The notes: a model not told the origin generated them from the sequence alone. 64,000 nt of DNA from a virus (IMGVR_UViG_3300020048_003650:40536-104535); one strand, 5' to 3'. Counted from the stretch's first letter, positions 29,261 through 40,734 are shown. Translations and numbers: made by a program.

Positions 29261-29343
29261 ACAATATTTAACTTGACAATTAATACCACTTGTGATATAC
29301 TGTAGTTATAGTAGATAAACACTTAAACACACAGGGATACAAA

Positions 29344-29865: not shown

Positions 29866-30835
29866 CACAGGTACTGTCGTGATAAATAATTCGGTCGTCA
29901 ACGTACTTGACACACTCAAAAAAGAAGATTACAATATTCTAATAGTTAATGCCCTTAACGGAGCGTTTCCTATTAGAGTTCGTAAAAAATATCCAAAAGC
30001 TAGAATTATCTGCGCCGAGATATTTCCATACTTCAAATCTCATCTACTCAAGTTGGGATTTGAAGTCATTGATTTTTCAATATTGACCGAAGATATGATA
30101 AAACGATTTAATGTGACTTTAGGTAATCCACCGTTTCAGGCAATGAAGTCTGATGGAGAGCGCAGTGATCAGGCTAGTAACCTGTGGAGTAAATTTTGGG
30201 TCAAGTCATTGGATATTACCAATGACAATGGAATTGTTGCTTTGGTTAGTCCAACTAGTTGGATTTCTCCTAGTTCAGAGATACGAGGCAAATGGTCTCG
30301 TAACGGCAAATCTAGATTGTGGGAGGTATTCGATCAATACGGTAGCTACGCTAATGTGACAGATGTAAAAAAACATTTTGATGGTGTGGGTTCTACATTT
30401 GGATATGTGATCGTAGATAAATCTAAAGATACTGGATTGATATTTTCAGACGGCGTGTCAACTAAATTAGGATTTCGCGCTCATGGAGAATATGACCGAG
30501 TTGAATTGGAACTAGATCGAATAGAGAATCTTGATAAACATTTTAAGATTAATCAAGTTAATTCCCCCGGTCTAAGAGTTAGCTTTCCGTTAACCAGAAC
30601 ATTAACCGTTAACAGCGTAGAGATATTAACAGGACAATCGTCGCCGACTACCGGCTCTGATAAAGATGGTTTGTATCTGTACATTCACGTGAATAATCTC
30701 ACTGAAGCGGAATTGGTAAAAAACCGAATTATTGATTGTTTGGATATTTTAAATAAACTCTGCAAGTACAGTGGATTTATTAATATCCAAACAGTAAAAA
30801 TGATTAAATTCTTCGATAGTGTTGTAAAAAGTTGA
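29813..30835 (+). CDS. Gamma-class (Eco57I/TaqI-like) adenine MTase: catalytic + TRD part with degenerate SAM motif
   Basis: FNVTLGNPPF, LWSKF, VSPTSW; motif I eroded to IVNALNGAF; start uncertain. Confidence 0.8.
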   Translation: MTGTIFRLQNFNFATLSNTGTVVINNSVVNVLDTLKKEDYNILIVNALNGAFPIRVRKKYPKARIICAEIFPYFKSHLLKLGFEVIDFSILTEDMIKRFNVTLGNPPFQAMKSDGERSDQASNLWSKFWVKSLDITNDNGIVALVSPTSWISPSSEIRGKWSRNGKSRLWEVFDQYGSYANVTDVKKHFDGVGSTFGYVIVDKSKDTGLIFSDGVSTKLGFRAHGEYDRVELELDRIENLDKHFKINQVNSPGLRVSFPLTRTLTVNSVEILTGQSSPTTGSDKDGLYLYIHVNNLTEAELVKNRIIDCLDILNKLCKYSGFINIQTVKMIKFFDSVVKS

Positions 30836-30891
30836 CAATAAATCCCACTTGTGATATACTGTAGTTATTCTAACACATAGAGAATAGTTAA

Positions 30892-33372
30892 ATGAGTTTA
30901 AAGATTATTGGTGACAGAGCCAAGATACACTGGTTGAGTTCAACTAAATCAGTAACCTTGACCAAAGATCAGGGCGTACTCTATATCACTCAAGATGGTA
31001 AACTTGGTCAGGCAACCGTAGAGAGTTATGCCGGTCTGACTCCGGCCGAGGCATTCGTGCGTCGCTATAATGGCATGAAGTCTGCCATGAATGGTAACTT
31101 TATTGCCGATGATCTCGTGGTGATTGATAAGACGTATGGTGAGAATCATGATTATGATGATGGTGTTCGTCTACTGATTAATAAATTAAACAAGATCAAT
31201 CTGATTGATTTTCGAGCTAACGTTCTATCTCAACAGACCGAAAATTCAAACAGCGAGGCACTAATAGATTACAAGTCATCGTCGCATAGAGACGATGTTA
31301 TCAATTGTATCAAACAATATCTAGGAATTAACACATACTACAATACTCACACACCATTTCAACCACGTTACGGCCAACAGTGGGCCGTCGACGGTATTGT
31401 TAGCGGTCTCGCTCAGTATGATCGTGTGTTGTTTGCTGGCTACACGGGCGTTGGCAAGAGCAAGATTGCCTTAGAGGCAATTCATCAGTACTATCCTGGT
31501 GGCGCTGTGATTCTTATTACCACACCTATTACCGAGACCATTACGTCATTCAAGGACGCCGTCGATGATACAAGATTTGGCAATTCTCCAACCAGAGAGA
31601 CTGTGATATATTCGACCGATAATATGCCGAGTGTCAAGAATATCAAAAACTCTGTTGCCAATGGCAATATTGTTATTGTTATTGCCACAGTACAGGATAT
31701 TCGCTATCAAGACAGTTCTTCAATTACCACACCGAATAAAAAACTTCGTACAAAATACACGTCACTGTGTCAGATAGTTGATCTATGGATTCGTGATGAG
31801 TATCATAAAGAGTACGGCGGAACAGTTACTCAGGAGGTATTCAAACATATCAAGACCAGTAAAAAACTAGACTTGACCGCCACGCCGTATTCGGTCATTG
31901 ATGAATATGATAGTGAACAGGTAATCTCACGTACACTATTGTGGGCAGTGGCAAATCGTGCTAATACCGGCGTGCCAAATTTTGGTATTGACTGTTTAGC
32001 CGGCTTGTTGCCAAAAAACATGAGTAAGTGGGGCGACCTATTCAGCGAGAGCGAGGGCTTTCACAGTCATAAATTGGTCGAACAATGCAGTTCAACAGGC
32101 GAGTTCGTAAACTTCGGAATCATCGAGGATATGATCGAGCGTTCATACTGTATGAATACCGTGCCTCGTAAAAAGAACGTGTTCAGCATCGGTAATGATG
32201 CTGAGTTGAGTCTTGTCGCCCGTGAAGTTGGATTGTGGATTATGCCAGAGGGAGCAAATGGCATTTCGGCATCAGACTACATTGTGTCACTGGCAGACAA
32301 ATTGAATCGTTGTGGCACAATTAATAAACACGTTAAAGTTACAACGGCATATGAGATTGACGGTCTGCGTAAACAGTTAACTGTGGAAGAATATGTTAAT
32401 TCAATCAAAGACCATCGTGTCTTGATTATCCTTACTCACGGTAAGTTCAAAACCGGAACTGATATACCCTGTTTAGGTCACATTGTATTACTAGACAAGA
32501 TTAGTAATATAGCGGAGTTTGAACAAACTGTTGGTAGAATCATGCGTGTCTATCCAACTAAGGACTACACTAAAATGTATGTGTACAGTCCAGGTGTCAC
32601 CGTCAAGGAAGTAGTTACTGAGTTAGCCCATCAGAATACTAAATTGTCCACGGACGAGACCCGTAGTGAATTGGATTTCTTAAGTTGTTTTCCAATTAGC
32701 GAGTATGATGGTCTGTCTATCCAGTCTCTCGATCCAGTTACACTGTTTGAAGAGTTTAAAGAAAAACTTAGACTCAAGAGTGCAATTGCCAACTTTAAAT
32801 TGCCCAGTGAAATTCGTTCAATGATTGAGAATAATTCAGATATCGCGGACGAATTATCTTTGCTGTCTAAGAAAAATGGTAAGCGCGATGGCCTAAGTTC
32901 GGACCTTACAGAAGATAATAACTCTGAGGTTTTTGGCAACCGTAATAAAAAAAATGGCAACACGAAAAAATCAACACCAGTCAACCAAGATCAAAAAACT
33001 ATCAATAATATCATTAACGGACTGGAAGAAATTTGGATAAACGTTCCGCCATTTGCCATTATTACAGATAGTGACGACATCGTTGATGTGTTACAATGTG
33101 AACCGCTAATTGAAATGTTCGGTCATGATCATATCTATTCAGTCGTCGATGTGATGAATAATTATCCAGACTTTAAGAAACGACTGCAACTTAGATTGAA
33201 CGTGTTCTTGACTGCATTCCGTGATCTACCGCCGGAACAGTGTTACGATTCAGTATTTAAAAACTGTGATAAAAAAATGAAACAGGGATTGGTATTCACC
33301 CCGTTTAGTTTAATTGATGAATTGTTGGATAAATTGCCTATGGACAGTTACAACGCTAAATATGGATACTAA
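30892..33372 (+). CDS. SF2 helicase of type ISP/III restriction-enzyme style, ending in MTase motif X
   Basis: PRYGQQWAV, GYTGVGKS, IRDEYH, LTATP, TGTDIP, QTVGRIMR; C-terminal GLVFTPFSLIDELLDKLP. Confidence 0.85.
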   Translation: MSLKIIGDRAKIHWLSSTKSVTLTKDQGVLYITQDGKLGQATVESYAGLTPAEAFVRRYNGMKSAMNGNFIADDLVVIDKTYGENHDYDDGVRLLINKLNKINLIDFRANVLSQQTENSNSEALIDYKSSSHRDDVINCIKQYLGINTYYNTHTPFQPRYGQQWAVDGIVSGLAQYDRVLFAGYTGVGKSKIALEAIHQYYPGGAVILITTPITETITSFKDAVDDTRFGNSPTRETVIYSTDNMPSVKNIKNSVANGNIVIVIATVQDIRYQDSSSITTPNKKLRTKYTSLCQIVDLWIRDEYHKEYGGTVTQEVFKHIKTSKKLDLTATPYSVIDEYDSEQVISRTLLWAVANRANTGVPNFGIDCLAGLLPKNMSKWGDLFSESEGFHSHKLVEQCSSTGEFVNFGIIEDMIERSYCMNTVPRKKNVFSIGNDAELSLVAREVGLWIMPEGANGISASDYIVSLADKLNRCGTINKHVKVTTAYEIDGLRKQLTVEEYVNSIKDHRVLIILTHGKFKTGTDIPCLGHIVLLDKISNIAEFEQTVGRIMRVYPTKDYTKMYVYSPGVTVKEVVTELAHQNTKLSTDETRSELDFLSCFPISEYDGLSIQSLDPVTLFEEFKEKLRLKSAIANFKLPSEIRSMIENNSDIADELSLLSKKNGKRDGLSSDLTEDNNSEVFGNRNKKNGNTKKSTPVNQDQKTINNIINGLEEIWINVPPFAIITDSDDIVDVLQCEPLIEMFGHDHIYSVVDVMNNYPDFKKRLQLRLNVFLTAFRDLPPEQCYDSVFKNCDKKMKQGLVFTPFSLIDELLDKLPMDSYNAKYGY

Positions 33373-33373
33373 G

Positions 33374-34399
33374 ATGATTGACAAGTTAAGCGATAAAGAC
33401 TACAATATCTTAGTGATAAATGCACTTAACGGCACATTTGCAATTAAACTCAGACAGCGGTATCCACGTGCCAGAATTATCTGTGCCGAGATGTTCTCTT
33501 ACTACGGAGAACACCTGACTAAACTGGGTTTTGAAGTTATCGACTACAAAGACTTGGACAAGAGTATGAGATTTGATGTAATAGCCGGAAATCCTCCTTA
33601 TCTTAAAGGAAAATGGATAGAGTTTTTAAAACGTTCTATCGAACTTTCCAATAAACACGTTCTGATGATTTCTCCAGACGGAACGAATAATTTTTCCACT
33701 CGCTCTGATAAATTGATCAGTTTTCTTAAGGAAAATGGAATTCAATCAAAAGTTGAATGCACTGATTCTTTCCCTACTGTTCTTAGCGGCAAGATTGTCA
33801 CTTATTTTTTGGATAAAAGTAAACCTGGAAATTCAGATATCTTTGACCCAGTTGATGATCTTGGACGACTGTTAAAACAAGTTATCCCGAATTCCAGAAA
33901 AAGTTTTCGGGGCGGCTATGAATTTATGGAACCAAAAGTAAAAGGAATTAAGCGTAACAAGAACAAGGACGTTCTGCCAAGTAATGATTCACAATCGTCA
34001 GAATATTCTCAACGAGTAATTGTGGGTGTCACCAGAAAAGGAATCATCGAACGATATTTTGCTGAACAATCTAGCGAGAGTCAGGCTACGGAACTAGGGT
34101 TTGTCATAAATCGCTCATTCGGACAAGGGTCCAATAAAGACGTTTATTTGGTAGATTCACAGAATACACAATTTACCAATAATGTCATTTGGTTCGAGGC
34201 ATATCCTGGAGAGACTGTGGAATCATTCTTATCAGTTTTTGGTAGTAATCTTTACGGCGAATTACTTACTCGTTTACGTAATGGTTCCATGGATATTCGA
34301 GCAACTCATCTTCAGGCATTGCCATGTCCGCCGCTAACTCGTGTGTATTCTGAACAAGAAGTCCACAATTTTGTTAAAAATCAACAAAAATATGGCTAA
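33374..34399 (+). CDS. Gamma-class adenine MTase: catalytic + TRD part with degenerate SAM motif
   Basis: MRFDVIAGNPPY, WIEFLKRS, MISP; N-terminal part paralogous to the 29813 gene. Confidence 0.8.
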   Translation: MIDKLSDKDYNILVINALNGTFAIKLRQRYPRARIICAEMFSYYGEHLTKLGFEVIDYKDLDKSMRFDVIAGNPPYLKGKWIEFLKRSIELSNKHVLMISPDGTNNFSTRSDKLISFLKENGIQSKVECTDSFPTVLSGKIVTYFLDKSKPGNSDIFDPVDDLGRLLKQVIPNSRKSFRGGYEFMEPKVKGIKRNKNKDVLPSNDSQSSEYSQRVIVGVTRKGIIERYFAEQSSESQATELGFVINRSFGQGSNKDVYLVDSQNTQFTNNVIWFEAYPGETVESFLSVFGSNLYGELLTRLRNGSMDIRATHLQALPCPPLTRVYSEQEVHNFVKNQQKYG

Positions 34400-34450
34400 A
34401 GCCATACAAAATCACTTGACACCGATCAACTATTAGAGTACAATAGTCAC

Positions 34451-34981
34451 ATGAACATTGAAACTATTATCAAACATTTACGTGAACGTGAATACATGTC
34501 GGGCGTTGACCGTGACAAAACTCGTGTAAAAGCGACCGGCGAAGTCTACACTCCAACTCCTCTTGTACAAGAGATCCTCCATCAAATACCACAAGATCAA
34601 TTTCAGGATCCCACTAAGACATTCTTAGACCCGACCTGTGGTGACGGTCAGTTCTTGAGTGAAATCATTATCAAGAAGATCGAATCTGGTTCAACATACG
34701 AACAGGCACTCTCAACTACCTATGGCGTTGATTTAATGCCAGATAACTGCCGTGAGTGTATCAGGCGATTGTACGGCGCCCTGGGTGAGCCTGTTATTGA
34801 AACCCTAGAAAATGGAGATATCCCCCTGGAGTGGCAGCGTGATGGCGTCATCGCGGTATTCAGGGTGAACGGCACAATCTGTAACATTGTCTGTGCAGAC
34901 GGACTTAAATATGACTACAGTTTTGGTGAATTGCCTGAGCCAGAGGTGTTTGGCAATTCGCTATTCGAAATAGGAGCATGA
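34451..34981 (+). CDS. Stand-alone SAM-binding half of a gamma-class MTase (motifs X, I, II, III only)
   Basis: TGEVYTP, FLDPTCGDGQFL, YGVDL, NIVCADGL; no NPPY motif. Confidence 0.85.
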   Translation: MNIETIIKHLREREYMSGVDRDKTRVKATGEVYTPTPLVQEILHQIPQDQFQDPTKTFLDPTCGDGQFLSEIIIKKIESGSTYEQALSTTYGVDLMPDNCRECIRRLYGALGEPVIETLENGDIPLEWQRDGVIAVFRVNGTICNIVCADGLKYDYSFGELPEPEVFGNSLFEIGA

Positions 34982-36000
34982 ATTCATTACTAAACTACAT
35001 TGGTCACAAGTCAAAAAATATGAATAATTTTTACGTTCTAAAACGTGATGTGCTATCAATGAACAAGATCAATGAACTAGTTGACCTTGTTTATATCGAT
35101 CCTCCATTTAATTTGAGTCGAAGATTTGAAATGGAAGGTGGTAGCGGATTTGATGATTATTGGAAAAATGATGATGAATACTTAGATTGGTATGCGTCTA
35201 TTATCACTGGATGTTATAATGTCCTGGGTAAGAACGGGACCATCTATTGTCATAATAACTTTATAAATAACGCATTGGTTCTTTCGAGAGTGTCGGAAAA
35301 AATTAGAAAATCATTCGATACCAATATTTCTTGGAAACGTAGTCACCCTCACAATAACATCAAAAATGGTTGGGGTAATATTACAGACAGTATTATTGTT
35401 TTTAAAAAGGGAAAACCATATTTTCAGCCAGAATACACTGAGTTAAATGAGAACTACAAAACTGGTAGTTTTAATAACTGTGATAGTCGCGGAAACTATA
35501 GTTTGAGTCCTATTACAGGAGAGAAATCACGATTGGGTCATATGTACACGTTTAATGGATACACACCCACTTATGGTTGGCGTAAGACTCTCGAGGATGT
35601 TCAAATTCTACACGAACAAAATATGATTCATTATGGAGATAATAAACCATATATGAAAAAATATTTAAACGAAAGTAAGGGTGTGCCAGTTCAAAATTTT
35701 TGGAACGATATACATCCTATCACCAGAAGTGAGAAGAATAAGCGTGAGTACCCAACACAAAAACCAACATTGTTACTGGAGCGTATTATCAGAGCTAGTT
35801 GCCCTGTAAATGGTTTGGTTTTTGACCCGTTCTGTGGTAGCGGAACTACAATGATGGCCACAGTTAATGTTGGAAATAGACGTTGTATCACAAGCGATCT
35901 AAATGATGAAGCTCTACAATTATGTAAAAATTCTCTACAACAACTATTAATATTCCCCGATATTGACGGAGAAAATATTTGGCCTACGTCCCAGTTATGA
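34978..36000 (+). CDS. Beta-class N6/N4 DNA methyltransferase
   Basis: YIDPPF ... YPTQKP..LLERII..FDPFCGSGTT. Confidence 0.93.
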   Translation: MNSLLNYIGHKSKNMNNFYVLKRDVLSMNKINELVDLVYIDPPFNLSRRFEMEGGSGFDDYWKNDDEYLDWYASIITGCYNVLGKNGTIYCHNNFINNALVLSRVSEKIRKSFDTNISWKRSHPHNNIKNGWGNITDSIIVFKKGKPYFQPEYTELNENYKTGSFNNCDSRGNYSLSPITGEKSRLGHMYTFNGYTPTYGWRKTLEDVQILHEQNMIHYGDNKPYMKKYLNESKGVPVQNFWNDIHPITRSEKNKREYPTQKPTLLLERIIRASCPVNGLVFDPFCGSGTTMMATVNVGNRRCITSDLNDEALQLCKNSLQQLLIFPDIDGENIWPTSQL

Positions 36001-36071
36001 TACTGATAAAAATAATTTATTTTTCTTTGAAAACACTTGACAGTATTAACAGACTATAGTATAATATCTGA

Positions 36072-36890
36072 ATGAGATTTGATGTAATAGCCGGAAATCC
36101 TCCATTTAATATTTCTAGTGATAGCGAAAACACTATTGCTGGAACCAGTGGCAATACTACACTTTACAAAAAGTTTATTGACATTAGTTTATCATTATCA
36201 GACACTGTGGCTATGGTGGTTCAACGTAATGGAGTCAGATATGCCGACAAAAAATCAGGCGGTGTGAGTAAATATTGTCTTGACACTACTCAGCACTGGA
36301 ATTTTAACACTGGGTGGTTTATCACTAATAAGTCAGACACATCAGTAGAGAACTGTTCTAAGAATCAGATTATCAAAAAAATATATTTATTAGAACAACA
36401 GTGGAATTACTCGGCCCCACTCAGCGGAAGTTATTCTAAGAATATCGATAAGAAGTTTTGGCTAAAATCCAATGGTCAAGATGTTTATGGAATAGTTGAC
36501 ACTCCAACGAAGGATTTCGACGAATGTCGATACGGATATTTTGAATCACCGTATCGTAGTGGTTCACAACTGATATTCAAGGGATTGGAAAGTATCAACA
36601 GTTATGTGGTGACTGATGAGTTTACCAAGGCAGGCAGTACGGCTGTATTGTTTTTTGACACAATTGAACAGGCTCATTTGGCAAAGAAATTTATTCTTAA
36701 CAATCTTGTGATTAAATATTTAAAATCAATAATTCATGAAAAGACACTGGGTATGGTATTTAGATATCTACGAAAGTTTGATTTGAATCAAATAAAGACT
36801 GGTTATGAATATCCCGTGGAATGGAATCTAAGTGAACAAGACATTGAAAAAATAGAAAACAATCAATCAAAGTTATCCAAAATTACTTGA
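36072..36890 (+). CDS. Stand-alone catalytic + TRD half of a gamma-class MTase
   Basis: Begins MRFDVIAGNPPF, LYKKFI; no SAM-binding motif; promoter 36037-36065. Confidence 0.8.
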   Translation: MRFDVIAGNPPFNISSDSENTIAGTSGNTTLYKKFIDISLSLSDTVAMVVQRNGVRYADKKSGGVSKYCLDTTQHWNFNTGWFITNKSDTSVENCSKNQIIKKIYLLEQQWNYSAPLSGSYSKNIDKKFWLKSNGQDVYGIVDTPTKDFDECRYGYFESPYRSGSQLIFKGLESINSYVVTDEFTKAGSTAVLFFDTIEQAHLAKKFILNNLVIKYLKSIIHEKTLGMVFRYLRKFDLNQIKTGYEYPVEWNLSEQDIEKIENNQSKLSKIT

Positions 36891-37005
36891 CACCGATCAA
36901 CTATCATAGTACAATGTCTGTGCGAACGGACTTAAATATGACTACAGTTTTGGCGAATTGCCAGAATCAGAGATCATTGGAAATGGTCTGTTTGAAATCG
37001 GATAA
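36887..37005 (+). pseudogene. Deletion remnant of a second SAM-half gene (promoter + last 29 codons)
   Basis: TTGACACCGATCAACTAT matches 34416; VCANGLKYDYSFGELPESEIIGNGLFEIG* matches the end of 34451..34981. Confidence 0.85.
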
Positions 37006-37059
37006 TCCTAGTTTTACTTAGATAAATACTCTATCTTTACTGGATTAATCGAGGTCAAA

Positions 37060-38529
37060 ATGAAAATAACAGAAGTTATACAAGAGTCGGAATCAAAATT
37101 AAAATCAAGAGTTAAAAGAGCGATTGATAAACTAGATGATTCTGATGCGGAACAGATTCAGACTCTAAATCACGTAAAAAATGTTATTTATGACAGTGTA
37201 TTGCAAAAAACATTTAATGAAAGTGACATCCAGTCTAGATGTCGTCCTATTGCGTACGAATGGTTCAAGGCTGCGTTAGAACGGATCGGTGTTCCTCTCG
37301 AAGATAAGGTATATCTGATAAAATTGATGGGAGACGAAAGATATTTAATTCCTGAAGAAATATATCAGAAAAATACCAATGGCAACTTGTTAAATCACGT
37401 AAGCGACAAGATAAGAACAAACTCGGCGTTCAAGGAATTGGCTAGCCCGTTGTGGAAATATAAAATAGGTGGCCAGGGCGGAATGGGACCTGGTGAGTTG
37501 TTTATGTCGCTTTTTTCAAAAAACGGCAAGGAAGGAGAAGGCAAAAAAGGAGGAGATGTCACAGTCGGAAGTTGGAAAATAGAACTGAAGCAGGGAGGAG
37601 TCGTTCCGCCCGGTGACACCAAAAATACAGGATTAGTTGATAAGTTAAACAAAAATCTATTGGATATTGCAAAAAAAGAAAACTTTTTAGATAGATTAGA
37701 TTTAAAATCGTCTGCTGGAAAAGATAATCCCAACAATTTAAGTTCTGGATGGATTCCTCAGTTTTTTAAAACATACACTGAACTTCACGATGAGTCATCA
37801 TCTAAAAAAATACTTACTAAATATCTAACGGATTTGTATGGAAGTTCGGCACGTGCATATGCCGATTTGACTTTTGATAACTTAGGTAAACCCGGAGCAG
37901 AAAGAGTATTAGCTCCGATGATTTTAGATATGTATAAGGATTCCCACGAGTGGGATAGTATTTGTTTTGTTGATGAAAACTTTAAATTCATTAACCTGGT
38001 TACCTTTGAAAATATACCAAATGATCTTAAGTTTTCACTGAAACTGAAAAGAGGAGGAGATACTAATGCTGTTGCCGACGGTTACATGGTTGTCGGTTTT
38101 AATAATGACAAAAAACAATCTTCAACTAAGAATAACAAAAAAATAGACAATAAATCAACTATACAAACATCTAAGAAAAATGACGGTGATGTAAAAAACA
38201 AAAACATACCATCTGACAATAAAAAGATTCAACCTCCAGTTCCAGAAAAAACCGCCAAACAACAGGCAAAAGATCAGGTCAGAGATTCTAAAATTAATGA
38301 TATGATCAATCTTATCAAAACTGAACCTTCAAAACCATTATCGGTTGCGATTAAGAAAACTATTGGTATGAATCCTACCATAAATCAACTTGAAATAATA
38401 GGTGATGTTATTGATGACATGGAATCCGGAGTCTCTGTCGATCAAATTATCGCCGACCGGTCCGGACCAGAAAATTTTTATGAATCATCAATGCAGTTAA
38501 TGGGAATAAAACGTCTACTCCAATTTTAA
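37060..38529 (+). CDS. Putative PD-(D/E)xK endonuclease, late, with capsid-targeting-like N-terminus
   Basis: GPGELF...GGDV..WKIELK; MKITEVIQE start; GATAAATA at 37021. Confidence 0.6.
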   Translation: MKITEVIQESESKLKSRVKRAIDKLDDSDAEQIQTLNHVKNVIYDSVLQKTFNESDIQSRCRPIAYEWFKAALERIGVPLEDKVYLIKLMGDERYLIPEEIYQKNTNGNLLNHVSDKIRTNSAFKELASPLWKYKIGGQGGMGPGELFMSLFSKNGKEGEGKKGGDVTVGSWKIELKQGGVVPPGDTKNTGLVDKLNKNLLDIAKKENFLDRLDLKSSAGKDNPNNLSSGWIPQFFKTYTELHDESSSKKILTKYLTDLYGSSARAYADLTFDNLGKPGAERVLAPMILDMYKDSHEWDSICFVDENFKFINLVTFENIPNDLKFSLKLKRGGDTNAVADGYMVVGFNNDKKQSSTKNNKKIDNKSTIQTSKKNDGDVKNKNIPSDNKKIQPPVPEKTAKQQAKDQVRDSKINDMINLIKTEPSKPLSVAIKKTIGMNPTINQLEIIGDVIDDMESGVSVDQIIADRSGPENFYESSMQLMGIKRLLQF

Positions 38530-38593
38530 AATATCTGACTATTTTGGATAATATTATCTTGACTTTCATGTGCCTATAACATATAATAGATAC

Positions 38594-39526
38594 ATGTCAA
38601 AATATAAAAAACCTCTGTTTATGTGGGCCGGCGGCAAAACTAAAATGATCAAGTTTTATGATCAGAGTCGAATAATGCCAACTACAGTCAACCGATACAT
38701 TGAACCATTCTTTGGTGGCGGAGCAATGTACATCGAAGTGATGGAAAGATTTAATCCAAAGATATCAATTATCAACGATATAAATTCCAGTATAGTTAAA
38801 ATTTATCAATCTATCAAAACTGATTATGATAATTTTATTATTCATCTGGATCGATTATGTGTTAAATATCTAGCCATGAACACCGTTGATCGTAAAACGT
38901 TTTATTACGAGGTTAGAAATTTACACGCGTATCATTATCAAAATTGGAGTAGTACTCAAGAATCCGCTACTCTTTACTTTTTGATGAAAACTGGATTCAA
39001 CGGAATATGGCAATGTAATCAAAATACAAATGGTAGATTTGGAACACCTAGTGGCCTATTGAATCAGAAAGACAGAGTCTATGATGTGGACGTAATCAAA
39101 TATTGGAATAATATTCTTCAATCATCCATTATTTTAAATCAAGATTGCAAATCTGTTTTATCACAATATCCAGACGTAGACGATAGTTTTTATTTTTTAG
39201 ACCCTCCATATAGAGGGAGTTTTACTCATTACAGTCAAACTTTCACAGATCAAGACCAAACAGATTTGTTAACCTTCGCCAAATCTGTCTCGTCTAATAG
39301 TAGGATATTATTGTGTAATGATGACGTTGGAGATAATTTTTTTCAGAATCAAATAGGTTCTCTTCAAATAGAGTCATACAATCTAAAACATACAGCGGGC
39401 CGTAGAAAAAAAACTGATGATGGATTTATCGCAAAGTCGGTAACGGAAATAGTCATTCATAACTCATCGAACATAAAATCCACATCGGAATCTTTTGGAA
39501 ACGACCTATTCGAAATCGGCGCATGA
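38594..39526 (+). CDS. dam: Dam-family (alpha-class) adenine methyltransferase
   Basis: FMWAGGK, YIEPFFGGGA, INDIN, FNG, FLDPPY. Confidence 0.92.
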   Translation: MSKYKKPLFMWAGGKTKMIKFYDQSRIMPTTVNRYIEPFFGGGAMYIEVMERFNPKISIINDINSSIVKIYQSIKTDYDNFIIHLDRLCVKYLAMNTVDRKTFYYEVRNLHAYHYQNWSSTQESATLYFLMKTGFNGIWQCNQNTNGRFGTPSGLLNQKDRVYDVDVIKYWNNILQSSIILNQDCKSVLSQYPDVDDSFYFLDPPYRGSFTHYSQTFTDQDQTDLLTFAKSVSSNSRILLCNDDVGDNFFQNQIGSLQIESYNLKHTAGRRKKTDDGFIAKSVTEIVIHNSSNIKSTSESFGNDLFEIGA

Positions 39527-39560
39527 ATTCATTACTGAACTACATTGGTCATAAATCAAA

Positions 39561-40466
39561 ATGAAACATGATTACAGATTAGGCGATTGTTTTGAACATC
39601 TCGCCTCTATACAGGACAACTCGGTCGATCTATGTCTAACCGACCCGCCATACTTTATAGATGGATTGGGCGATGAATGGGACACTGATAAAATTAAAGC
39701 CAGTATTTCGACCAACGCCACGTCTACCATCAAGTCCTTGCCAGTTGGTATGAAGTTTGACCCATCTCAAGGTCCACGTTTTCAAGAATTCATGGAACGA
39801 GTCTCCACGGAAGTATTTAGAGTTCTTAAACCTGGCGGATTTTATGTTGCTTTCAGTCAAGCGAGACTGTATCATCGACTGGGCATTGCCGTTGAAAATT
39901 GCGGATTTGAAATTAGAGACATGTTAGGCTGGACTTATCAGGGACAAGCCAAAGCATTTAGTCAAGATCATATCATTCGTAAGCAAAAAAACTTAACCGA
40001 AGACGAAAAGACCTCACTGATAAAAGAGTTAGATGGCTGGAAAACTCCACAATTAAAACCCTGTATCGAACCGATGACTTTGGCACAAAAACCCATAGAG
40101 GGTAAGTTTATCGATAATTGGCAAAAGTGGGGTGTGGGGTTAATTAACACTAATCAGCGTTGGGACGACAGTTTTCCTGGAAATATTATCGGGTGTAATA
40201 AGCCCACCAAAAAAGAAAAGGGAGATTACAATAATCATGTGAGTGTTAAGCCTCTAGAGTTATGTGAGCATTTAATAAAACTTTTAACCAGAGAAAACGC
40301 CATCGTTCTGGATCCATTTTTAGGTTCAGGTACTACGCTAATAGCCGCTGAAAATACTCAACGCAGATGTATTGGATTTGAATTATCATCTGAGTACTTT
40401 GATATTATACAACGTAGGCTAAGTACGGCGACCCATTATAATAAAATTTTAGGATTTGATAGTTGA
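39561..40466 (+). CDS. Beta-class DNA methyltransferase
   Basis: LTDPPY, RVLKPGG, HVSVKP, LDPFLGSGTT. Confidence 0.93.
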   Translation: MKHDYRLGDCFEHLASIQDNSVDLCLTDPPYFIDGLGDEWDTDKIKASISTNATSTIKSLPVGMKFDPSQGPRFQEFMERVSTEVFRVLKPGGFYVAFSQARLYHRLGIAVENCGFEIRDMLGWTYQGQAKAFSQDHIIRKQKNLTEDEKTSLIKELDGWKTPQLKPCIEPMTLAQKPIEGKFIDNWQKWGVGLINTNQRWDDSFPGNIIGCNKPTKKEKGDYNNHVSVKPLELCEHLIKLLTRENAIVLDPFLGSGTTLIAAENTQRRCIGFELSSEYFDIIQRRLSTATHYNKILGFDS

Positions 40467-40670
40467 ATGAACTCACTTCTCAACTACATTGGTCACAAGT
40501 CAAAAATCGTCAACCAAATCAAGATGTATTTGCCTGAGACTGTTATTGAACTGGCTAAAAAATATCGAAAATGGGCAAGCGCTGGCAACAAAACCGTAGA
40601 GCGTGGCTCTAAAATCAATCGAGAAGTCTTAGTACTATCATATCGGTCGCCAATAATTCAAATCGTTTAA
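40467..40670 (+). pseudogene. Internally deleted Dam-like MTase remnant
   Basis: Dam-like start LNYIGHKSKIVNQIKMYLP joined directly to a Dam-like end REVLVLSY. Confidence 0.7.
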
Positions 40671-40734
40671 TACCAATTACACTTGACAATAAATCACAAC
40701 TATGATACAATGTAGTTATTGTGAGGTAAATTCT

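Follow-up and report, generated by a model that had tools for sequence, protein, structure and literature searches.

Investigation of a 64,000-nucleotide (nt) window of viral DNA (IMGVR_UViG_3300020048_003650:40536-104535) indicates that the stretch between 33.3 and 40.7 kb is probably the variable methylase island of a giant phage and that, on balance, it was put together and trimmed through general recombination acting at conserved ends of genes, as in ordinary phage gene shuffling and with no dedicated machine. The window belongs to a viral source contig of 104.5 kb for which CheckV gave a completeness of about 30%, a value which at this length indicates a giant phage. Genes present between 29.8 and 40.7 kb include three gamma-class methylase paralogues (29813, 33374 and 36072), one helicase, a 176-amino-acid (aa) protein binding S-adenosylmethionine (SAM) and hereafter called the SAM-half protein, two beta methylases of the family PF01555, a 489-aa protein of unknown family, a D12 Dam and a 67-aa open reading frame (ORF), the methylase genes and gene remnants numbering about ten. 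Two short coding elements recur at the ends of these genes, a C-terminal "tail", FGNxLFEIG(A), and an N-terminal "head", MNSLLNYIGHKSK. Positions are counted from the first letter of the window, and the genes, remnants, junctions and repeat copies located between 33374 and 40670 lie on the + strand.

Repeats and gene ends of the methylase island

The self-comparison proposed with the original prediction, an earlier reading of this DNA as a locus of cassette exchange, was carried out by repeat finding and self-BLAST and defines four repeat families. A 68-nt repeat consisting of a tail and a head occurs at 34949-35016 (junction A) and 39494-39561 (in junction B, 39494-39564), with 85% identity overall and 91% over the last 56 nt. 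A 92-nt repeat is present at 34884-34975 and 36911-37002 (82% identical), and a 47-nt promoter repeat, absent from the earlier list of repeats, is present at 34398-34444 and 36869-36915 (87% identical), abutting the 92-nt repeat at the second location (36869-37005). As first described, a degenerate 39-nt pattern of the head matches exactly three times, on the + strand at 34978, 39523 and 40467 (0 expected in 100 shuffles), and a 32-mer is identical at 33566 and 36072 (0 expected, shuffled sequence having given none). The longest exact runs common to the diverged repeat copies are 16-28 nt, and the exact repeat measures 32 nt.

Junction A is made up of tail codons, an ATGA stop/start overlap and 13 Dam head codons, and junction B of tail codons, an ATGA overlap and a head mini-ORF of 13 codons (39523-39564), the stop of which overlaps with the following ATG. 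Tail and head thus recur as one unit, with the same GCATGA overlap, behind two unrelated genes, those of the SAM-half protein and the D12 Dam. At junction A the head is fused in frame to beta methylase 1 (34978-36000), whose homology to other beta methylases begins only at residue 15-24 and whose native start is likely M15 at 35020; at junction B the 13-codon ORF, with an ATGA overlap at each end, is coupled to beta methylase 2 (39561-40466), which lies between head copies B and C as 39-nt direct repeats; and copy C heads the 67-aa ORF (40467-40670). These reading frames agree with those given in the original prediction. The two beta methylases share only 34% identity over 74 residues, and the only feature common to both of their joints is the A-run TCAAAA, a micro-homology. 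TCAAAA is a common hexamer and was rejected as a general start context; in the same comparison of start contexts, TCAAAATGAAA was common only to the gene at 37060 and beta methylase 2.

Regarding the head, P0124 and the starts of its family indicate that a T4-type Dam family has it as its genuine, native N-terminus. The start M(N/D/IE)SL(L/I)NYIGHKSKIV is found in ten further members of the family and in four viral loci, and PF02086 is carried by P0124-P0133 and by four viral loci with a Dam-type start. Between the head-bearing family and the Dam of T4-type phages the relationship is distant (27%). In the four viral loci the Dam gene stands alone with its own promoter upstream, and the nucleotide core of the head, TACATTGGTCA[CT]AA, is kept in three of the four at a protein identity of about 64%. 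P0124 itself is a 313-aa "site-specific DNA-adenine methylase" (PF02086) from other samples and the intact relative, 98% identical, of the 67-aa ORF: the first 25 residues of the ORF match it save two substitutions, the last 43 match it exactly, and the residues missing between them (about 245) correspond to an in-frame deletion, both edges of which end in the residues TV. The 67-aa ORF has no Pfam match and does not contain the complete Dam fold with its SAM-binding (FxGxG-type) and DPPY motifs. By this comparison it is a remnant of a T4-type Dam, consisting of head copy C and the last 43 codons, and not a working member of the family, so that the "gutted Dam" originally suspected at 40467 is borne out by an intact protein which supplies both of its ends and the absent middle. 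Between the three head copies there are 3, 4 and 6 nucleotide differences, every one of them synonymous, which indicates that the copies diverged under selection on the peptide. The simplest reading would be that head and tail copies diverged as parts of working genes in different lineages, and not as drifting duplicates within one genome.

The tails FGNSLFEIGA (34949-34981), IGNGLFEIG (36976-37005) and FGNDLFEIGA (39494-39526), each followed by a stop codon and all present as previously listed, end respectively the SAM-half protein (34451-34981), which has motifs X and I-III and no NPPY, the remnant of a second SAM-half gene (36869-37005), and the D12-class Dam methylase (38594-39526), which is 310 aa long when counted from the ATG placed 6 nt after the -10 box. 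Tails A and B differ by four synonymous changes and the variable x codon. The SAM-half protein belongs to a family of stand-alone proteins and has more than 5,400 relatives, mostly of 150-190 aa, and 116 of its 120 best hits contain a Y-D-Y-x-F-G anchor; LF follows this anchor in 93 of the 116, most often exactly three residues from the C-end, the post-anchor segment being 1-101 residues long. Among the relatives of the D12 Dam, the nearest (75-93% identical) end [VI]IGNGL[FI]EIG or VIGNGLFTLE, those at 60-68% identity end RLFDIVE or RLFEIV, and those of 285 aa (53-58% identical) stop at the end of the fold. The T4-type Dams P0130, P0131 and P0133 carry FGNGLF, and other T4-type Dams end QLFHYQ, PLFSY or ELFEFV. 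In the AlphaFold models, residues 161-176 of the SAM-half protein (predicted local distance difference test, pLDDT, of 52-56) and the last 15 residues of the D12 Dam (pLDDT below 50) lie outside the fold, and the tail, a hydrophobic plus acidic peptide, is predicted to be disordered.

From its distribution, FGNxLFEIG(A) is evidently a conserved short linear C-terminal motif common to three unrelated methylase families, native to the SAM-half family and appended to the D12 Dam and to T4-type Dams in this phage lineage, and much of its recurrence is attributable to selection on the peptide. The original prediction had taken the tail for a mere junction repeat, which it is not, and an origin as a recombination scar is ruled out for a native, conserved and position-constrained motif of three families. 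By analogy, the most likely role of the tail is docking to a shared partner, for which the sliding clamp would be a guess. A broader and tentative proposal, possible at well below even chances, is that the tail tethers unrelated phage methylases and the SAM-half family to one hub (most likely the sliding clamp at the replication fork) and, being portable, serves as a homology arm for methylase swaps between related giant phages.

Regarding T4-like cyanophages, the SAM-half homologues of S-SKS1 and P-SSM2 end GVEQFF and GVLKF, and the DNA polymerases of P-SSM2 (L058) and S-SKS1 (L059) end NLDSFFS and NLDLFLY plus a basic extension, respectively. A strict scan of P-SSM2 for hydrophobic-acidic C-termini retrieved the polymerase together with a few small ORFs and missed the SAM-half homologue. 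In cyanophage genomes, for instance those of P-SSM2, S-SKS1 and S-CAM7, the SAM-half family carries no name.

A SAM-half gene nearly always follows a gamma-class methylase gene, and the direct succession of the two recurs in the unrelated contigs L001, L014, L077, L078 and L081 (for example at L081:2017-3275, L014:4672-6478 and L078:2594-4262); other contigs bearing this module share little or nothing else with the source contig. The island holds the module twice, at 33374-34981 and 36072-37005, with the SAM-half deleted in the second. In the first module, the gamma-class gene (33374-34399, with a Pfam match to Eco57I) contains copy 1 of the exact repeat (33566-33597) at catalytic motif IV (MRFDVIAGNPP). 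The second module begins, behind a perfect promoter at 36037-36065, with a gene for a 272-aa gamma-class catalytic/target-recognition "half" (36072-36890), which starts at motif IV and whose first 32 nt are repeat copy 2 (36072-36103). Since the upstream gene of L081 likewise starts at motif IV (MNFDVVVGNPPF), the 272-aa "half", together with its pairing with a SAM-half gene, represents a conserved design; it is not a truncation, and its interpretation as a capture scar is ruled out; both upstream "halves" begin at the NPPF motif. The 272-aa half and the SAM-half would together be consistent with a two-gene split methylase.

The second SAM-half copy has lost about 440 nt between the -10 box and codon ~147, which leaves promoter repeat copy 2 directly joined to the last 30 codons (36869-37005). 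By residue count, 28 of these 30 codons are identical to P0271 (closest allele P0270/P0271) and 24 of the 30 to the resident copy, and this greater closeness implies that the second module either derives from a relative or has diverged in the way of one. In viral, metagenome and genome contigs, scans turned up only distant loci with the gamma/SAM-half pair. L001, the viral contig most closely related, breaks off within the SAM-half gene, and across roughly 25 other loci the gene following the SAM-half varies and in no case carries the head.

For comparison with close relatives, protein clusters of at least 90% identity from other contigs were used, and the termini were read from the protein. 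P0264, the relative of the 36072 product, is identical at 266 of 272 residues, and three of the six differences fall within residues 2-8 (MIFDVVAT versus MRFDVIAG), which lie exactly in the 32 nt identical to 33566-33597. Because the differences cluster where the 36072 product equals its neighbour, 36072-36103 is a short gene-conversion patch copied from the neighbouring paralogue. P0258, a relative of beta methylase 1, lacks the head and begins MASLQLDVDL... P0261, a relative of beta methylase 2, has an in-frame upstream stretch (...SLDICHLLVYNYS) and hence a different upstream context; this stretch may back-translate to TTGACA-17-TACAAT-6-ATG. P0260, another relative of beta methylase 2, differs in its last 10-11 residues, and for both P0260 and the intact Dam P0124 the longest contig is 5,736 nt. 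The contigs of the other close variants measure 7,597 nt (P0264 and P0270), 7,565 nt (P0261), 16,368 nt (P0262 and P0004), 2,505 nt (P0258), 4,540 nt (P0268) and 7,739 nt (P0272). Judged by these different termini, the intact Dam and the unconverted patch, gene content and boundaries do vary among close relatives.

Assembly of the island and alternative explanations

Assembly by general recombination would begin with the head and tail, which, being kept by related phages under selection on both peptides, would form homology patches of 30-70 nt at gene boundaries. Recombination through homology or micro-homology, either between related phages infecting one cell or between sister genomes, would then have joined modules at these patches, namely the gamma methylase plus SAM-half (twice), two different beta methylases, the D12 Dam and the T4-type Dam; redundant copies would subsequently have been removed by micro-homology deletions, and the 32-nt conversion patch would have been laid down. 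The original prediction that methylases are captured and deleted at short gene-boundary homologies stands insofar as the locus is a mosaic with gene ends as joints, where genes were acquired and eroded (the gutted Dam, the deleted SAM-half copy and two 13-codon Dam stubs). The accordion for methylation specificity proposed with it would be a hypothetical adaptive process, and no dedicated exchange machinery was detected. Neither a tyrosine or serine recombinase (PF00589, PF00239) nor an integrase or resolvase was found in the 104.5-kb contig (about 30% of the genome), and repeat finding gave only weak, scattered inverted repeats. Site-specific recombination was rejected on these grounds. An RNA element at the junctions was rejected as well, the folds being no better than those of shuffles (z 0.10-0.38); terminator-like sites were found, none of them at the junctions.

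Several points weigh against assembly by general recombination. The comparison of different cargo at the same junction rests on protein termini, and that of co-occurrence on contigs on equal longest-contig sizes. In both beta methylases the joint with the head follows the same codon, which is not expected of random illegitimate recombination, and the tail/ATGA/head junction was found nowhere else in IMG/VR with degenerate head and tail patterns (0 hits). The all-synonymous divergence could mean that the stubs themselves are under peptide selection for some function. Regarding the tail, no family-B polymerase, gp45-type or beta clamp, or RecA gene was detected in the 104-kb fragment (about 30% complete), the gp45 model having matched no control genome either, and no clamp or family-B polymerase gene was detected in G000 or G001; with these genes absent from the fragment, the docking partner is pure inference.

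An active cassette-exchange locus, in which the tail/head junction is a recurrent landing site, cassettes are inserted and excised (for example as circles) and the population re-sorts its methylation specificities adaptively, appears unlikely. It would account for the exact flanking of beta methylase 2 by 39-nt direct head repeats, for the 4.5-kb block between junctions A and B and for the insertion after the same codon in both cases, and it fits relatives which hold the same beta methylases in other contexts together with an intact Dam; the 32-nt conversion patch would be small-scale ongoing exchange, and the promoter-early stem-loop (PeSL) cassettes of T4-type phages offer a precedent (PMC2839356). 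The flanking repeats, however, are 8-15% diverged and so are not fresh target duplications, the junction was present in no other viral contig of IMG/VR, no recombinase was found in the fragment, the neighbours downstream of the SAM-half never carry a head in the roughly 25 other loci, and no evidence for circles or within-population variants was obtained. Less probable still is an explanation by function only, in which each methylase independently needs the docking peptide, the head stubs are a portable start/coupling leader, and nucleotide similarity reflects codon constraint alone. The tail is native to three families under strong position constraint, the head core is retained in three of the four Dam loci, the head differences are all synonymous, and the stubs keep ATGA overlaps where no Shine-Dalgarno sequence is present, all of which this explanation covers; but independent need does not predict that tail and head recur as one 68-nt unit, with the same overlap, before unrelated genes, a 13-codon Dam gene fragment can come only from a Dam gene, the remnants and deletions are real rearrangement, and the ends of near-identical genes differ between contigs.

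An assembly chimera, in which the assembler would have used shared repeats to join strain variants into tandem modules, is unlikely from the structure of the repeats and is the least probable of the explanations considered. The contig does come from metagenome assembly, the two modules are alike in the manner of alleles (82-87%), and close variants exist in the same kinds of samples. The shared exact runs of 16-32 nt, however, are below usual k-mer sizes and thus too short for assembly mis-joins, and the second module is a deletion derivative rather than a full alternative allele. Products of the window were also called on JGI, ENA and Logan contigs, the head-fused 340-aa methylase being found on a separate 2,563-nt Logan contig, and at every junction the reading frames and ATGA overlaps run through unbroken. 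The preferred explanation is general recombination at conserved gene ends.

Promoters and neighbouring genes

Regarding expression, three units share TTGACA/TTGACT-17-TACAAT/TATAAT-6 nt-ATG (34416, 36037 and 38559). The same geometry of -35 box, 17 nt, -10 box, 6 nt and start codon is found at 34416-34453, 36037-36074 and 38559-38596 and, with GTG as the start codon, at 33378-33415, the last of these copies lying inside the first codons of the 33374 gene. Promoter repeat copy 1 (34398-34444) has this leaderless geometry, with TTGACA-17-TACAAT followed after 6 nt by the ATG of the SAM-half gene. A -10 box placed 6 nt before the start codon implies leaderless mRNAs, which suggests that the methylase units are transcribed from their own sigma-70-type promoters as such mRNAs. 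Downstream genes are attached by ATGA or TGAATG overlaps with no clear ribosome-binding site. To judge by this chain of ATGA overlaps and the missing ribosome-binding sites, the 13-codon Dam stubs were probably retained as coupled translation starts for the beta methylase genes. A 40-nt promoter motif (TTGACAAT.AAT..CAC.T.TGATA.A.TGTAGTTAT) is present three times, at 29270-29309, 30829-30868 and 40680-40719 (78-93% identical), and two of its copies bracket the methylase and helicase region. All promoter repeats (29270/30829/40680 and 34398/36869) conform to TTGACA-17-TA(C/T)A(A/C)T.

The 489-aa protein (37060-38529), encoded in the middle of the island, matched no family in Pfam or PHROG. Among the named clusters of the Atlas, restriction endonucleases come nearest to it (0.77-0.78), at the level of a lead only, and it carries a D-x9-E-x-K stretch (GDVTVGSWKIELK). 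Its gene has a Shine-Dalgarno-type start and is the sole gene of the island for which such a start was noted.

The last ~50 residues of the helicase (33270-33420) resemble the N-terminal motif-X part of a gamma methylase (GLVFTPFSLIDELLDKLP), and the C-terminal ~50 residues of the helicase show 25% identity to the N-terminus of the SAM-half protein (E 0.014). The helicase end (LIDELLDKLPMDSYN) and the start of the next gene (MIDKLSDKDYN) form an imperfect duplication in different frames. The boundary between the helicase and the 33374 gene may be a further boundary joint or a broken helicase-methylase fusion.

Relation to known systems

Phage methylases protect phage DNA from host restriction, and a locus in which conserved gene ends serve for joining, swapping and trimming whole methylase genes would provide a concrete route by which an anti-restriction repertoire changes. 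Being remnants, the 67-aa "protein", the 13-codon ORF and the head-fused methylase should not be annotated as new genes.

Loci that change specificity by rearranging modules between repeats include the phase-variable inversion shufflons of hsdS in restriction-modification systems and the cassettes of integrons. The island is alike in that rearrangement of modules between repeats could change methylation specificity, but its repeats are direct and not inverted, the fragment contains no tyrosine or serine recombinase, and the units are whole genes rather than target-recognition domains. Another parallel is offered by gene-boundary "linker" homologies and the modular theory of lambdoid phage evolution, reportedly described by Botstein in 1980 and, for HK620, by Clark et al. 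in 2001. Here too, short conserved junction sequences would be preferred crossover points between otherwise unrelated modules; however, lambdoid linkers lie for the most part between genes or at the termini of homologous ones, whereas one arm of the present junction is a portable peptide motif on non-homologous enzymes.

Regarding the tail, its presence as an unstructured segment on three methylase families and on most close SAM-half members hints at recruitment to a common partner, and among the papers searched no report was found that links phage DNA methylases with clamps or clamp-binding motifs. The clamp-binding epitopes of T4 (gp43, gp33 and gp55) are short hydrophobic-acidic C-termini which follow variable linkers and are interchangeable (PMC2988020). 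The tail likewise stands at the extreme C-terminus behind a variable, predicted-disordered linker in three methylase families of DNA-acting enzymes, but LFEIG is not the T4 consensus, the likeness being one of sequence form alone.

PeSL elements are mobile regulatory cassettes in the hyperplastic regions of T4-type phages (Arbiol et al. 2010, PMC2839356; Comeau et al. 2014, PMC4122927). In both systems, short conserved boundary motifs flank variable non-core genes, general recombination acts (for the island, probably) with no dedicated recombinase, and early-promoter motifs are repeated at cassette borders (here 29270/30829/40680 and 34398/36869). Indels and replacements between close relatives map to the PeSL motifs; in the island, the protein termini of relatives of at least 90% identity differ at the gene ends. 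The island differs in that its main repeat is coding, comprising the last 10 codons of one gene and the first 13 codons of Dam, in that no stem-loop is present at the junctions (fold z-scores 0.1-0.4), and in that the cargo is all DNA methylases, with exchange between relatives seen through protein termini. The best reading of these comparisons is that the island may follow the same logic as PeSL shuffling, with coding adapters, which would extend to such "adapters" the boundary-motif shuffling known from T4-type and lambdoid phages.

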